Source: a phage
Sequence record: PZ179885.1
DNA: 40,778 bases
Direction: 5' to 3' (one strand)
This document shows positions 3,309 through 20,923 of the stretch, one piece after another; the first letter of the stretch is position 1, and each line of letters starts with the position of its first letter. Below the pieces are notes generated by a model, which was not told the DNA's origin, did no database searches, and saw nothing but the letters and a program-made list of their open reading frames with translations. Position numbers and translations under genes: made by a program.

Positions 3309-3812
3309 ATGGAACGTAACGCTAACGCATACTATGAGCTGCTGGCTGCAACCGTTGAGGCATTTATCGAGCGTATTCAGTACTACCACCTGACTAAAGA
3401 TGATGACTACAGCGATGCGCTGCATGAGGCCGTAGACGGTCAGGTTCCGCACTATTACCACGAGATTTTTACGGTGATGGCTGCTGATGGTATAGACCAC
3501 GAGTTCGAAGACTCTGGGCTGATGCCTGAAACCAAGGACGTAACGCGTATCCTACAAGCTCGCATCTATGAGGCACTTTATAACGACGTGTCTAATAGCT
3601 TGGATGTAGTCTGGTTTGAGGATGAAGAGGCAGACGAAGAGGATGAATATTGGGTAGTTGACGCTAAAACAGGCGCAATAATTGTGCAAGCTGTAGCTCT
3701 TGAGGTCGCTACTGCATGTGCCAAGCTCAACTATACGATAGGTCGCCACCTGAAGGTGGAAGACATCAATGATAACGTAGTGTTCGACCCTGCGGCTGAG
3801 GACTGCGAGTGA
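3309..3812 (+). CDS. 0.3: Ocr-like DNA-mimic anti-restriction protein (gene 0.3) with C-terminal extension
   Basis: Residues 1-115 align with T7 Ocr ([43 protein letters not shown] versus T7 [43 protein letters not shown]); acidic tail, then about 50 extra residues. Confidence 0.85.
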
Positions 3813-8924: not shown

Positions 8925-9173
8925 ATGAGTAAACGTTGGTTATTCGACGCATCCACGAGCCAGTGGTCAGCGTTAGGCCGGACTCACCGCGAGATGAGTG
9001 AGGCAGGACTTGATGTCCTAATGGATTACTCGCCGTGCCCCGGGAAAACTCTGGTAAGAATCATTGAAGCAGACGGGAAGCCTCTGGTATCCAGCGAGTT
9101 CACCGAACACGAAATCTTTAGCTGTGAGCAATGGTGCTTGCAACAACTGAATGCTTATAGGAGCTGGAAATAA
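8925..9173 (+). CDS. 1.2: gene 1.2-like protein (possible dGTPase inhibitor)
   Basis: 82 aa, ends in WK like T7 gp1.2; assignment mainly by size and position between 1.1 and ligase. Confidence 0.55.
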   Translation: MSKRWLFDASTSQWSALGRTHREMSEAGLDVLMDYSPCPGKTLVRIIEADGKPLVSSEFTEHEIFSCEQWCLQQLNAYRSWK

Positions 9174-16133: not shown

Positions 16134-16170
16134 AGTGGCCTTTATGATTAGACTAAACGGAGGATTAACC

Positions 16171-16572
16171 ATGTTTGATTGCATTGAGTGGACCGGGTGC
16201 CGAGACCGTTTCGGATACGGTATGCGAAAGGTCAACGGGAAAGTCCGTAGACTACATCTGATAGCCTTCGAGGAGGCGAACGGTCCGATACCTGAAGGAA
16301 TGGTCGTGCGACATAAGTGTGACAACCCATCGTGTTACAACCCAGCACACTTAGAGCTGGGGACACGGGCTGACAACAATCGTGATAGAGACGTAAGAGG
16401 TCGAACCGCTAAGGGAGTGAGGCATGGGAGTTCTAGACTTACACCTGAAATAATACAAGAGGCCAAGGTGCTCTACGCAGGAGGTGGATGGACTCACCGC
16501 TCCCTAGGTGAGAAGTATGGAGTTGGACACCGCACGATAGCTAGAGCAATTGGAGGAGAAACATGGACTTAA
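16171..16572 (+). CDS. HNH homing endonuclease
   Basis: CIEWTGC...GYG...HLIAFEEANGPIPEGMVVRHKCDNPSCYNPAHLELGTRADNNRD; paralogue of 22218..22634. Confidence 0.85.
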   Translation: MFDCIEWTGCRDRFGYGMRKVNGKVRRLHLIAFEEANGPIPEGMVVRHKCDNPSCYNPAHLELGTRADNNRDRDVRGRTAKGVRHGSSRLTPEIIQEAKVLYAGGGWTHRSLGEKYGVGHRTIARAIGGETWT

Positions 16573-18731
16573 GTAACGTATACGGGTCTGACATCGAGAC
16601 CAACGGTCTCCTTGACACCGTGTCCCAGTTCCATTGTGGGGTCCTGATTAATGCCGAGTCTAATGAGACCATTAAGTATGGGGTAGCTCCGATGGTCGGT
16701 ATCGTCGGTGGCTTCAAAGAGTATGTACAGAAGGTGGAAGAGATTGTCGCATCACCTGATGGTATGCTGATATTCCACAACGGTATCAACTATGACGTCC
16801 CGGCTATTGACAAGCTAAAGCGTCTGTACTTTGGGAAACGCTTTAACTTCCCGAAACACAAGATGATTGATACCTTGGTGCTGGGACGCTTGATGTATCC
16901 AAACATTAAGTTCTCAGACATGGGCGCAGTGAAAGCTGGTCGTCTGCCACCTAAGATGATGGGACGCCAGTCTCTTGAGGCTTGGGGCTATCGTCTCGGT
17001 GAGATGAAAGGTGAGTACAAACACGATTACGTTGCCAAGTGCAAGGCTGAAGGTATCGAATATAAGGCTGGGGACGAATGGTTGTTCCCATCTCAGGAGA
17101 TGCTAGACTATAACGTTCAAGACGTTGTGGTCACACTGGCGTTGTTCAAGAAGTTCCTGACTGACAAGTATTACTTCCAGTCTGAACAGTTCGCTTTCGA
17201 CCAGATTTATGCGTTGCGTCTGGAACATGATGCTGCGTGGACCTGTGCGAAGATGGAGCGTAACGGCTATCCGATGAACACCGAGATGGTCGAAGGCTTA
17301 TATCGTGAACTCACCGTCAAACGTGCAGAGTTGTTGGACAAGCTGCGTTCGACTTTCGGTAGCTGGTATGCACCAAAGGGAGGCAAGGAGTTCTTCAAGC
17401 ACCCACGGACAGGCAAGGACCTTCCGAAGTATCCGCGAGTCGTGTATCCTAAGGTCGGGTCAGTATTCAAGAAGCCGAAGAACAAAGCTCAACGCTTAGG
17501 TCTGGAGCCTTGCGAGTTCGACTCACGAGACACGATGGAAGGAGCACCGTTCACGCCAATCACTTACGTTGAGTTTAATCCGGGAAGCGGAGACCACTTA
17601 GCGAAAGTCTTGATGGAGCGTGGTTGGGAGCCTGTGGACTTCACTGACACTGGGAAACCTGTAGTCGATGACGAGACGTTAGAACACGTTAAGCTACCAG
17701 ACGCAGAGGCTCAGGCTTGCGTAGAGCTGGTCCGTGAGTATCTGGTAGTCCAGAAGCGCAGCGGTCAGGCGGCTGAAGGTAAGAACGCATGGTTGAAACT
17801 TGTAGGTCCAGACGGACGTATGCACGGTTCAATCAACCCATGCGGTGCAGTAACAGGACGTGCGACTCATAGTTCACCAAACATGGCTCAGGTCCCTGCT
17901 AACGGTGCTCCGTATGGTGAGATTTGCCGTGGTGCTTTCGGTGCAGCTTGGAACAAGACGGATGGTAAGCCAGACCCTTGGATTCAAGTGGGTGTGGATG
18001 CTTCAGGTCTTGAGCTTCGTTGTCTGGGGAACCGAGCAGCTCCGTTTGATGGTGGTGCCTATGCGAAGACTGTGGTAGAAGGTGACATCCACTGGGCCAA
18101 CGCAGTCAACGCTGGGTTAGCACCTAACGTCCCACGCGATAAGTCGAACCACGACCATGATGCTTTCCGTAACAACGCTAAGACGTTCATCTATGCGTTC
18201 CTGTATGGTGCAGGGGCCGCTAAGATTGGACTGATAGTCGGCGGTGGTAAGAAGGAAGGTTCAGCTCTCATGAAGAAATTCATTGAGGGTACACCAGCCA
18301 TCAAGGACCTCAGGGAAGCTGTGAGTAATACGTTAATCTCAGACTCTAAGTGGGTAGATGGTGAGAACATCGTTAAGTGGAAACGCCGTTGGCTGCGTGG
18401 ACTTGACGGTCGCCGTATCCACATCCGGTCGCCACACTCAGCACTGAACGCCTTACTTCAAGGTGATGGTGCGGTAGTCTGTAAAACGTGGTTCACTTGG
18501 CTTGAGAGGAACCTAGAAGCTAAAGGCTACGTGCATGGCTGGGATGGCGACTTTGCGATTATGGCTTTTGTCCATGACGAAGTTCAGGTTGCCGCAAGGA
18601 CCATGGAAATAGCTGAGGACATCGTTAGGGTGGCGCAATCAACAATGAGAGAGGTTGGAGAGTTCTACCAGTTCAAGTGTGTGCTTGACACCGAGGGTAA
18701 GATAGGACCTACGTGGCGCGAATGTCACTAA
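16563..18731 (+). CDS. 5: DNA polymerase (gene 5)
   Basis: 722 aa; collinear with T7 gp5 (FHCGV, FHNGINYDVPA, EAWGYRLGEMKGEYK, DYNVQDVVVT, NPCGAVTGRATH, LELRCL, NAKTFIYAFLYGAG, HDE). Confidence 0.98.
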   Translation: MDLSNVYGSDIETNGLLDTVSQFHCGVLINAESNETIKYGVAPMVGIVGGFKEYVQKVEEIVASPDGMLIFHNGINYDVPAIDKLKRLYFGKRFNFPKHKMIDTLVLGRLMYPNIKFSDMGAVKAGRLPPKMMGRQSLEAWGYRLGEMKGEYKHDYVAKCKAEGIEYKAGDEWLFPSQEMLDYNVQDVVVTLALFKKFLTDKYYFQSEQFAFDQIYALRLEHDAAWTCAKMERNGYPMNTEMVEGLYRELTVKRAELLDKLRSTFGSWYAPKGGKEFFKHPRTGKDLPKYPRVVYPKVGSVFKKPKNKAQRLGLEPCEFDSRDTMEGAPFTPITYVEFNPGSGDHLAKVLMERGWEPVDFTDTGKPVVDDETLEHVKLPDAEAQACVELVREYLVVQKRSGQAAEGKNAWLKLVGPDGRMHGSINPCGAVTGRATHSSPNMAQVPANGAPYGEICRGAFGAAWNKTDGKPDPWIQVGVDASGLELRCLGNRAAPFDGGAYAKTVVEGDIHWANAVNAGLAPNVPRDKSNHDHDAFRNNAKTFIYAFLYGAGAAKIGLIVGGGKKEGSALMKKFIEGTPAIKDLREAVSNTLISDSKWVDGENIVKWKRRWLRGLDGRRIHIRSPHSALNALLQGDGAVVCKTWFTWLERNLEAKGYVHGWDGDFAIMAFVHDEVQVAARTMEIAEDIVRVAQSTMREVGEFYQFKCVLDTEGKIGPTWRECH

Positions 18732-18740
18732 GGAGATAAG

Positions 18741-19067
18741 ATGGGAGGTGTAGCAACCTTACGATTCCATAAGATGCCTACTGGATGTATCGTCTGTGTA
18801 TCACATCGTCGAAACCATGATGGATACTTTCGGTACACGGTAGGCTCTGCCCGTAAGCCGGGACGCAAGGCGTTTATGTTCCACCGATGGGTGTGGGAGC
18901 AGAAGCGCGGACCTATACCAGATGGCTACGAGATAGACCATTTGTGCTTTAACCGTGGGTGCTGCAACATAGAGCACCTACAATGTATTCCAAAGCGTGA
19001 GCACGTCATCAAGACGAACCGTGAGCGCAAACTTATTAAGAAGGAGAAGACTAATGGCTATTACTAA
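18741..19067 (+). CDS. HNH endonuclease (gene 5.3 position)
   Basis: 108 aa; HRWVWEQKRGPIPDGYEIDHLCFNRGCCNIEHLQCIPKREH. Confidence 0.85.
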   Translation: MGGVATLRFHKMPTGCIVCVSHRRNHDGYFRYTVGSARKPGRKAFMFHRWVWEQKRGPIPDGYEIDHLCFNRGCCNIEHLQCIPKREHVIKTNRERKLIKKEKTNGYY

Positions 19068-19338
19068 ACGTATTCGTGTAAGTTTCGACCTGAAGATGGT
19101 TGTCAACTCAAAGGAAGAAGAGACCATGTGTCGCCAACTGGCCGAGAGGACTAAAGCCTACGCTGAGGGCGAGAAGCTGGATGGACTTCAGTTGGCTCTG
19201 GTCAAAGCAGCAATCGAATCAGGCCCTGAGTCTGCCCTTGAGATTGCCGTCAAGAAGACCATCAAGGAGGAGCTGGTATACGCCTTTGGTGATGACCAGT
19301 TCGGCGTGTCTAACCTGCGATTTGAGGTCAAGAAATGA
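19054..19338 (+). CDS. 5.5: gene 5.5-like protein
   Basis: MAITKRIRVSFDL resembles T7 gp5.5 MAMTKKFKVSFDV; internal ATG of the 18997 ORF. Confidence 0.75.
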   Translation: MAITKRIRVSFDLKMVVNSKEEETMCRQLAERTKAYAEGEKLDGLQLALVKAAIESGPESALEIAVKKTIKEELVYAFGDDQFGVSNLRFEVKK

Positions 19339-19544
19339 GTGAATACTTACGGGTCCTAGCGGCCCTTAAGTCCTGCCCGAAGACCTTCCAGTCCAACTAT
19401 GTGCGCAACAACGCTGCACTTGTGGCTGAGGCTGCGAGTCGTGGACATCTGAGCTGCCTGTCTATGGACGGGCGTAACAACGGTGCGTGGGAGATTACCG
19501 CTGCTGGCACCAAGTTCCTGAACCAACACGGAGGCTGCCTGTGA
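19335..19544 (+). CDS. 5.7: gene 5.7 protein
   Basis: 69 aa; LKSCPKTFQSNYVRNNAALVAEAASRGHLSC...GAWEITAAGTKFL is nearly identical to T7 gp5.7. Confidence 0.92.
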   Translation: MSEYLRVLAALKSCPKTFQSNYVRNNAALVAEAASRGHLSCLSMDGRNNGAWEITAAGTKFLNQHGGCL

Positions 19545-19990
19545 AGATACCTGAAAGTCTGAAAGAGCTTGTCCTTGACATGGGTGAGTGCGAGAAGGAG
19601 CACCGCAAGTACGCTGAGTTCTACGCATCTTGGTCATACACCTTGACAGAGAAGGACGTTGAGTCATACACCGAGTCTCCCGCTGAGGCTTATGAGTGGC
19701 GTCCGTTCATCGGACTGACCATCGTAGCTAGCGGTATGTGGGATGACAGATACGGTTCAGAGGTAAACGACTGGGACGTGTGCCGCCAAGTTGAGAAGGA
19801 GACTGAGATGTCTTCAAACTTCTGGAACCTGATGTCACACCTCAACTCAGAGGATAATGACATGGCCCATGAGTTCGCCAACAAATGGCTGAAGCCTGAG
19901 GTGACTCTGGAACGTATTGAGGAGCCTAAAGTTCCCTTGCTGCCATATGCAGTCGCTATGGCTACAGGAGGTCTGGACGATGGGTGCTGA
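19541..19990 (+). CDS. acidic hypothetical protein at the gene 5.9 position (GTG start assumed)
   Basis: 150 aa from a GTG overlapping the 5.7 stop (GTGA); rich in Asp/Glu; no recognisable similarity to the 52 aa T7 gp5.9. Confidence 0.5.
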   Translation: MKIPESLKELVLDMGECEKEHRKYAEFYASWSYTLTEKDVESYTESPAEAYEWRPFIGLTIVASGMWDDRYGSEVNDWDVCRQVEKETEMSSNFWNLMSHLNSEDNDMAHEFANKWLKPEVTLERIEEPKVPLLPYAVAMATGGLDDGC

Positions 19991-20849
19991 GAAGAAGATA
20001 GCTCTTGTTCTTGATGGCGATTACCTAGTATTCTCTTCTATGGCTGCTGCCGAGGACGAGACAGACTGGGGTGATGACATCTGGACCCTTATCTGCGACC
20101 ACGAGAAGGCTCGCCGTATCCTTGAGAACACCATCGCTGAAATCGTTAAGAAGCGCAAGGCGTGGAAAGACGCTAAGATTGTGATGTGCTTTACTGATGA
20201 TAACAACTGGCGTAAGGACGTTTTGCCTACCTATAAGGCTAACCGTAAGGGTTCTCGCAAGCCTGTAGGTTACAAGAAGTTCGTAGCCGAAGTGATGGCT
20301 GACCCACGGTTCAACAGCTTCCTGCGTCCCACGCTTGAGGGTGATGACTGTATGGGTATCATCGGGACCAGACCTCAGATTGTCGGATGTGACCATGCGG
20401 TTCTGGTGTCCTGTGATAAGGACTTCAAGACCATCCCGAACTGTGAGTTCTTCTGGTTAACCACTGGTGAAATCCTGAGTCATACGACTGCTGAGGCAGA
20501 CTACTGGCACATGGAGCAGACCATCAAGGGAGATACTACAGATGGCTACGGTGGCATTCCTGGAATGGGTGAGGACACCACTCGTGTGTTCCTTGACGAG
20601 CCGTACTACTTCGTGCAGGAGAGCCGTGAGCTTAAGACTGGTAAGAACAAAGGCCAGATTAAGACTGAGTGGAAGAAGTATCCGAAGCGTGAAGACATGA
20701 CGCTGTGGGACTGCATGGTTACACTGGCTGCTAAGGCTGGCATGACCGAGGAGGAACTTCTGGTCCAAGCTCAGGTCGCTCGTATTTGTCGAGCCTCCGA
20801 CTACGACCCTAAGTCCAAGGAGGTCATCCTATGGACACCATCCATGTAA
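19980..20849 (+). CDS. 6: 5'-3' exonuclease (gene 6)
   Basis: CDHEKARRILE, FTDDNNWRKDVLPTYKANRK, SCDKDFKTIPNC, QTIKGDTTDGYGGI, TLWDC and AKAGMTEE match T7 gp6. Confidence 0.95.
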   Translation: MGAEKKIALVLDGDYLVFSSMAAAEDETDWGDDIWTLICDHEKARRILENTIAEIVKKRKAWKDAKIVMCFTDDNNWRKDVLPTYKANRKGSRKPVGYKKFVAEVMADPRFNSFLRPTLEGDDCMGIIGTRPQIVGCDHAVLVSCDKDFKTIPNCEFFWLTTGEILSHTTAEADYWHMEQTIKGDTTDGYGGIPGMGEDTTRVFLDEPYYFVQESRELKTGKNKGQIKTEWKKYPKREDMTLWDCMVTLAAKAGMTEEELLVQAQVARICRASDYDPKSKEVILWTPSM

Positions 20850-20923
20850 TTTACTGGGTCGGACTTCTGGCCCTTTACTGCATGTACAAGTGGTTCGGGT
20901 CGAACAACCGTCCTAAACACTGA
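20831..20923 (+). CDS. small hydrophobic protein (gene 6.3 position)
   Basis: 30 aa; MDTIHVIYWVGLLALYCMYKWFGSNNRPKH; overlaps the gene 6 stop. Confidence 0.35.
   Translation: MDTIHVIYWVGLLALYCMYKWFGSNNRPKH

Follow-up and report, generated by a model that had tools for sequence, protein, structure and literature searches.

The 40,778-nucleotide (nt) sequence record PZ179885.1, hereafter the window, represents the entire genome of a K1F-like phage (Autographiviridae, Studiervirinae, Kayfunavirus) in circularly permuted form. Over positions 18700-20900 its nucleotide identity is 97% with Enterobacteria phage IME177 and 90-95% with many Kayfunaviruses of Escherichia and Salmonella. On the forward strand, an open reading frame (ORF) at 19541..19990 encodes an acidic protein of 149 amino acids (aa) that belongs to PHROG 4382 (phrog_4382, E = 5e-47). 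The gene upstream of it (19335..19544, forward strand) is a 69-aa homologue of gene 5.7 that matches phrog_1334 (E = 7e-39) and phrog_17900 (E = 4.5e-46), both of which are families containing gp5.7, and its counterpart in IME177 is annotated as gp5.7. Downstream, at 19980..20849 on the forward strand, gene 6 encodes a 289-aa T7 gene 6-type 5'-3' exonuclease, as evidenced by PF02739 (E = 5.8e-9), phrog_107 (E = 1e-79) and the annotations in relatives. The initial annotation had predicted an acidic protein of 150 aa between these two genes and coupled to both. The flanking family matches confirm the position. The ORF coordinates also stand, whereas the length is 149 aa since the 450 nt include the stop codon (TGA, 19988-19990). 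The predicted acidity was likewise found, as the 17.3 kDa product has a pI of 4.41 and 31 aspartate and glutamate versus 14 lysine and arginine residues, with a net charge of -17.

The ORF starts with GTG (19541-19543), which overlaps the TGA of gene 5.7 (19542-19544) within the sequence GTGA, and a GGAGG Shine-Dalgarno sequence lies 6 nt upstream of this start (19530..19534, forward strand). At its other end the ATG of gene 6 at 19980 creates an 11-nt overlap. The GGAGG Shine-Dalgarno sequence of gene 6 (19967..19971, forward strand) is located within the tail-coding part of the ORF, where it encodes the Gly-Gly of ..TGGLDD... These overlaps agree with the proposed coupling to both neighbors. 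Because the 13 N-terminal residues before the first internal ATG (19580) are kept even in homologues of ~30% identity, the GTG start is supported. The ratio of nonsynonymous to synonymous substitution rates (dN/dS) of the ORF, calculated against six orthologues, is 0.11-0.26, compared with 0.01-0.05 for gene 6, 0-0.12 for 5.7 and 0.09-0.42 for 5.5. The ORF is therefore under purifying selection and evolves faster than gp6, at a rate like that of the host-binding gp5.5. The same ORF is annotated in GenBank records of close relatives, such as IME177. Overall, the sequence data indicate that ORF 19541-19990 is a genuine gene and not a chance reading frame.

Searches of Pfam, NCBIfam and PHROGs with the ORF product returned PHROG 4382, a profile of unknown function, as the only full-length family (E = 5.2e-47; residues 1-130 on profile positions 6-129 of 130). 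Matches to zf-RNPHF and SLT_L in Pfam and one match in NCBIfam were rejected as noise with E > 0.1, far below cut-off. By sequence, neither the single protein nor the profile matched an entry in the PDB. Profile searches over 1.8 and 5.8 billion proteins yielded 25 clusters at the 50% identity level and 48 clusters at the 90% level. All of these are free-standing proteins of 84-151 aa with no known domains and no fusions, and the family was found in phages only. Kayfunavirus homologues are 80-98% identical to the ORF product, those of Przondovirus (Klebsiella phages; 127 aa) ~44% and those of the Ounavirinae myoviruses Suspvirus and Mooglevirus 27-35%, and further homologues were detected in T7-like phages of Dickeya, Pectobacterium and Pantoea as well as in a Privateervirus. 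All 29 aligned family members are acidic, with a pI of 4.2-5.0. The relatives in other T7-like phages occupy the 5.7-6 slot, where a gene 6-type exonuclease follows immediately, and in three Ounavirinae they are located between nrdD and nrdG. Others lie downstream of PolA or near a ribonucleotide reductase small subunit. In further contexts the relative immediately precedes an RNase_H_2-type exonuclease, with ThyX and ribonucleotide reductase nearby, or is flanked by endonuclease VII and an RNase_T exonuclease. All but one of the contexts examined are DNA-metabolism modules, and they come from at least five phage groups. We found nothing relevant in the searchable literature on this gene in K1F-like or KP32-like phages, or on the 5.7-6 slot as an accessory region.

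The gene is optional. At a coverage of at least 80%, its DNA is present in 55 phage records versus 222 for the adjacent gene 6, so that about a quarter of Kayfunavirus-type records carry it, and K1F has no gene between 5.7 and 6. The spacing between 5.7 and 6 varies from 3 to 1363 nt in the 79 IMG/VR loci that were retrieved with gene 6. At least ten families without relationship to each other occupy the slot, and within the same genus these include Gp5_9-domain proteins. In a subset of 23 loci with gene 6 at least 90% identical, the ORF is present in 5, the slot is empty in 7, and the remainder contain phrog_2251-type genes (7), phrog_18166-type acidic genes (2), a hybrid (1) and a phrog_6163 gene encoding a Gp5_9-domain protein (1). 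In close relatives (loci L011-L033 and L067) the slot is either empty or filled by the ORF or by one of four or more unrelated small genes besides it.

In phages with an empty slot of the K1F type (L014, L017 and L022), gene 6 starts at the same GGAGG...GTGA/ATGA site as the ORF. Cassettes therefore insert immediately behind the start codon, and gene 6 receives a new ribosome-binding site that is supplied or re-formed by the cassette. Their 5' junction falls exactly at the GTGA start site and their 3' junction at the shared gene 6 leader. Two types of this leader were observed, each common to unrelated cassettes and read as a C-terminal tail (LLxATVxAMxxxxxxDE). The 5.7-6 junction (window 19530-19544 and 19922-19990) is a cassette-exchange site.

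Altered copies of the ORF and other small genes were also observed in the slot. Escherichia virus LS2 contains an unannotated mosaic remnant (L010:1460-1650) in which fragments of the ORF (..HRKYAE.., ..GSEVNHWDVYRQVQKETEMSSNFW..) are combined with fragments of the phrog_2251-type cassette. In-frame deletion forms of 91 aa occur in the Kayfunavirus type (P0031) and in the Klebsiella-phage type (P0034). The phrog_18166 slot family (110-111 aa; L018:2673-3005 and L028:2670-3005) is acidic with a pI of 4.4 and weakly similar to phrog_2294, a family of small proteins labelled 'ribonucleotide reductase' (E = 8e-8). Together with the nrdD/nrdG-flanked homologues of the ORF, this makes two unrelated slot families with ribonucleotide reductase-linked relatives, where the link is via gene position for the ORF family and only via the family label for phrog_18166. 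In Przondovirus phages, as seen in Klebsiella phage IME321 (L003:2871-3047), an extra 58-aa basic ORF, which is not gp5.9-like, separates the ORF homologue from gene 6.

T7 gp5.9 (PF25708, Phage_T7_Gp5_9) is a DNA mimic that inhibits RecBCD and MukBEF. The initial annotation considered the ORF a possible expanded version of this protein or else a different anti-nuclease, and the former is contradicted by our searches. BLASTP of the ORF product against T7 gp5.9, using a query sequence 100% identical to T7 records, revealed no similarity (E = 8.3), and the best tblastn hit of T7 gp5.9 against the whole window (E = 3.2) was at a location other than the ORF. When the window was searched by tblastn with the T7-type and three other gp5.9 types, only an internal motif of the ORF matched, and these queries identified no Gp5_9-domain ORF elsewhere in the window. 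Neither the ORF product nor any of the 29 aligned family members matched PF25708 at E <= 1. With a gathering score of 24.5 bits, this profile is passed by T7 gp5.9 (27.8 bits) and by YeO3-type (72.3), L060-type (62.1) and phrog_6163-type (55.8) proteins. The predicted fold is alpha/beta and not a coiled coil. Judged from sequence and model, the ORF product is neither a homologue nor an enlargement of gp5.9.

In order to dissect the protein, we used an AlphaFold2 (AF2) model built on the 29-sequence alignment, with a mean predicted local distance difference test score (pLDDT) of 81 that rises to ~90 over residues 1-127. The model comprises five beta-strands and six helices, none of which is a long coiled-coil helix. 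A Foldseek search of the PDB with this model yielded no significant match (best E = 0.24), and all hits in BFVD were uncharacterised phage proteins related to the ORF product by sequence (E = 7e-13 to 9e-10). The N-terminal alpha/beta core (residues 1-88; 19541..19804, forward strand), delimited by AF2 pLDDT (~90), alignment and column statistics, is the part common to all family members. It is composed of helix 5-14, a beta-hairpin at 16-34 (strands 16-19 and 26-34), helices 37-43 and 47-56 and a second beta-hairpin at 60-86 (strands 60-68 and 72-86). The core contains a conserved polar cluster formed by E20-H21-R22-K23-Y24 and G65-x-W67-x-D69-x-x-G72-x-E74, and its best-conserved positions are E20, H21, R22, K23 (97%), Y24, F27, Y28, G58, G65, W67, D69, G72 and E74. 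The secondary structure places these conserved residues putatively at the tips of both beta-hairpins.

The core is followed by a helical hairpin (residues 89-116; 19805..19888, forward strand), recognized using BLASTP, hhalign and whole-window tblastn and composed of helices 89-100 and 107-116; strand 120-125 and a disordered tail complete the model. The hairpin displays the motif F94-W-N-LMSHLNSEDNDMAHEF112 (nt 19820-19876), which can be written as F-W-x-LMSHLNSEDNDMAHEF. About half of the distant relatives carry a different C-terminus (..IPE..IIPAH..) in its place, and the hairpin is thus a separable module. It matches the N-terminal module of phrog_6163 proteins by BLASTP (E = 4e-7) and by hhalign, in the latter case over residues 92-115 only (93.7%, E = 1.9e-7, 54% identity), and the ORF product reaches E = 1e-3 against the phrog_6163 profile. 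The motif is nearly invariant in 21 phrog_6163-type proteins, and with such a protein as the query the hairpin is the sole tblastn match in the whole window. Beyond the motif, the remainder of the phrog_6163 proteins (66-82 aa) is a Gp5_9 domain (residues 21-66). This part (FLxALxxxGVDNW...) was not found in the ORF product, and the resemblance of the tail to it is weak and non-significant. The NSEDND loop was inspected by eye as a candidate EF-hand and rejected as it does not fit the consensus.

The phrog_6163 and the YeO3-12-type 61-aa proteins have the Gp5_9 domain in common (E = 2e-12), and the latter share their N-terminus with T7 gp5.9 (E = 2e-9). This results in a modular chain from the ORF via phrog_6163 and YeO3-12-type proteins to gp5.9. 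We do not read this chain as homology between the ORF product and gp5.9, but it ties the hairpin to proteins built around the RecBCD-inhibitor domain. The phrog_6163 architecture, LMSHLNGEDNxxAEEF plus Gp5_9, is widespread in T7-like phages and ~52-kb contigs, including Aeromonas phage phiA050, and phrog_6163 bears the label 'unknown function'. In these proteins (found also at loci L053 and L063) conservation is higher in the N-terminal module than in the Gp5_9 domain. The Cronobacter phage GW1 copy carries the name 'putative tail spike protein', a clear misannotation.

The C-terminal tail (residues 128-149, EPKVPLLPYAVAMATGGLDDGC; 19922..19987, forward strand) is predicted to be disordered, with pLDDT < 50 for residues 129-149. 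It is the translated leader of gene 6, as its DNA encodes the Shine-Dalgarno sequence and the start of that gene. The same tail (..SLMPATVAMATGGLDDGF) ends the unrelated phrog_2251-type protein of phage SP7, and variants of it are found on other cassettes. The tail region most likely marks where the cassette recombined at its 3' end. A docking tail similar to those of SSB or gp2.5 (..DDGF, ..DDDFE in relatives) was considered and rejected, since the window copy ends in Cys and others in ..RDE or ..SDE. The ribosome-binding site and start codon of gene 6 overlap this stretch and determine the C-terminal residues, which hence do not constitute a docking tail.

Overall, the ORF encodes a real, optional, fairly fast-evolving, acidic and phage-restricted protein in a hypervariable cassette slot that also hosts Gp5_9-domain genes. 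The gene order of T7, which this genome shares, places the slot among the class II DNA-metabolism genes. Our preferred though tentative reading, which may well be correct, is that the product is a host-directed inhibitor acting during phage DNA replication, for which we infer both mechanism and target. The ORF would be an optional cassette gene that is translated from the initiation site used by gene 6 in cassette-less phages and, by analogy with T7, transcribed together with the class II DNA-metabolism genes. Its product would bind a host DNA-metabolism or defence protein stoichiometrically and block it while the phage DNA is replicated, and the phage would benefit on some hosts only. Optionality, decayed copies, the hypervariable slot, the phage-only free-standing family, its DNA-metabolism contexts, the family-wide acidity and the Gp5_9-linked motif all back a host inhibitor. 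RecBCD is the single most likely target, although taken by itself an unlikely one. Less probable again is a counter-defence family with a new fold that inhibits RecBCD or another host DNA-end or DNA-processing machine, in which the hairpin would serve as a portable docking module combined with either the alpha/beta domain or the Gp5_9 coiled coil. If this were the case, alternative inhibitors of a single host hub would be exchanged at the 5.7-6 slot of T7-like phages.

Several points weigh against a host-directed inhibitor. The ORF family has not been linked to any function by experiment or homology. Its most conserved residues form a His/Arg/Lys/Tyr/Trp/Asp/Glu cluster and not an acidic surface, and such a cluster is as compatible with ligand binding or catalysis as with a protein interface. 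A pI of ~4.4 is common among the proteins of this genome, and the phages with an empty slot show that no function is required at the 5.7-6 position. The shared motif may have no more than a structural or oligomerisation role, or it may simply result from recombination between cassettes.

The main rival explanation, which we consider possible but doubtful, is an accessory role in DNA or nucleotide metabolism, either as a ligand-binding protein or enzyme or as a partner or regulator of the phage exonuclease or replication proteins. As in a binding pocket, the most conserved positions are polar or aromatic (E20, H21, R22, K23, Y24, W67, D69, E74 and H100). The location of homologues between nrdD and nrdG in Ounavirinae and near ThyX, ribonucleotide reductase, endonuclease VII, PolA and RNase_H_2-, RNase_T- and gene 6-type exonucleases is also consistent with this role. 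However, presence and absence among near-identical phages together with ready decay would be unusual for a replication factor, and the protein shows no similarity to any enzyme or nucleotide-binding fold. The adjacency to gene 6 in T7-like phages merely reflects the insertion slot.

It is unlikely, and somewhat more so than a metabolic role, that the product is a functional analogue of gp5.9, the different anti-nuclease of the initial annotation, which would bind RecBCD by DNA mimicry or in another way and thereby protect the ends of replicating phage DNA. In T7, T3 and phiYeO3-12-type phages the slot of the ORF is taken by gp5.9 and in other Kayfunaviruses by Gp5_9-domain proteins, and the tblastn searches revealed no other Gp5_9-domain ORF in the window. 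The family as a whole is acidic, outside it the LMSHLNxEDNxxAxEF module is fused to Gp5_9 domains, and the named hosts are all enterobacteria, which have RecBCD. On the other hand, the product does not resemble gp5.9 in sequence or fold and has no significant match among solved structures, a set that includes RecBCD-inhibitor complexes. K1F-type phages have an empty slot and no gp5.9, so the slot position does not imply RecBCD inhibition. Moreover, other occupants of the slot are basic or neutral, and the charge density of the ORF product is below that of gp5.9 (PMC9836394).

That the ORF is an enlarged or divergent true homologue of gp5.9, and thus a member of the Gp5_9 family, is largely refuted and highly improbable. 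Position and acidity would agree with such a protein, and the BLASTP alignment with the phrog_6163 protein continues weakly into the tail (AVAMATGGLDD versus LDALRAAGVDN), hinting that the tail might be a relic of a Gp5_9 domain. Nevertheless, PF25708 is matched by all four gp5.9-type proteins and not by the ORF product, hhalign is confined to the hairpin, the tail, whose DNA contains the ribosome-binding site of gene 6, recurs on unrelated cassettes, and the model shows an alpha/beta fold. A non-functional ORF, whether chance frame or dead remnant, can practically be dismissed, as truncated and mosaic remnants do exist in some relatives but the dN/dS, the full length conserved in 55 records, homologues of 25-45% identity in five other phage groups, the confident AF2 core and the intact Shine-Dalgarno sequence and start argue against it.

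As a host inhibitor, the product would extend the few phage proteins known to disarm host DNA-processing or defence machinery by a structurally new family, and the 5.7-6 junction of T7-like phages would be a place to find such genes systematically. The 24-residue module in common with Gp5_9-domain proteins offers a testable handle, with binding of RecBCD, MukBEF or another target as the candidate activity. Kayfunaviruses serve as therapeutic and engineering chassis, e.g. against E. coli K1 and Salmonella Typhi, hence an optional gene that alters host range would be of practical interest. Without a host-inhibitor role, the ORF would be just another small phage gene of unknown function. Taken alone it is a conserved hypothetical gene that the PHROGs already list without a function, and as a possible new anti-host family it is of moderate interest.

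Further upstream of gene 5.7 lie a gp5.5-like gene (19054-19338) and the DNA polymerase gene (16563-18731). The latter is flanked by two HNH endonuclease genes at 16144-16572 and 18741-19067, the first of which ends 10 nt inside the polymerase ORF. In K1F the polymerase gene is split by an HNH gene, and gene 5 is annotated as a two-piece join. The homing endonucleases adjoin the variable 5.7-6 slot and may promote cassette exchange. A 167-aa ORF with a pI of 4.1 (3309-3812) matches ocr-like anti-restriction proteins (phrog_2568, E = 9e-53), showing that the phage already has one anti-restriction gene of the DNA-mimic type in its early region. An 82-aa ORF (8925-9173) matches the family of T7 gp1.2-type dGTPase inhibitors (phrog_6515, E = 4e-36). 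The sequence opens within the large terminase gene (1-1767), consistent with a permuted whole-genome assembly that is not given from the physical left end. The Kayfunavirus region including the ORF was also found, with ~92-93% nucleotide identity, in OR786095.1 ('Staphylococcus phage MBBL139') and MT350292.1 ('Enterococcus phage EFA-1'). The host labels of these records are probably wrong, or the cultures were contaminated.

A comparison with known systems reveals that the ORF product shares with T7 gp5.9 the slot between 5.7 and 6, translational coupling, acidity and the class of non-essential accessory class II genes. On the other hand, it is three times longer and shows no sequence similarity. 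Its predicted structure combines an alpha/beta sandwich with a helical hairpin, in contrast to the parallel coiled-coil dimer of gp5.9, which is braced by a short N-terminal beta-sheet (PMC9836394). With a pI of 4.4 and -0.11 charges per residue, its charge density is below that of gp5.9, which has a pI of 4.0 (PMC9836394). The acidic DNA mimics Ocr, lambda Gam, UGI and ArdA show no significant fold or sequence match to the ORF product. As for the DNA-mimic class as a whole, net negative charge is conserved across the ORF family, yet only 6 acidic positions are conserved by class. Proteins of phrog_6163, such as the 66-aa protein of Cronobacter phage GW1, have a helix-loop-helix motif of ~24 residues in common with the ORF product; they are likewise acidic and located in the same slot of T7-like phages, including the Kayfunavirus-type contig L027 (2805-3005). 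In the ORF product this motif is internal, following a different domain of 88 residues, and there is no Gp5_9 domain, whereas in phrog_6163 it is N-terminal and the Gp5_9 domain comes next. The Przondovirus, Suspvirus, Mooglevirus and Privateervirus proteins are true homologues, with 27-48% identity over residues 2-127. Those of Przondovirus and Ounavirinae end at about residue 127 and thus lack the 22-residue tail of the ORF product. The Ounavirinae gene sits between nrdD and nrdG, whereas the ORF described here precedes an exonuclease gene.

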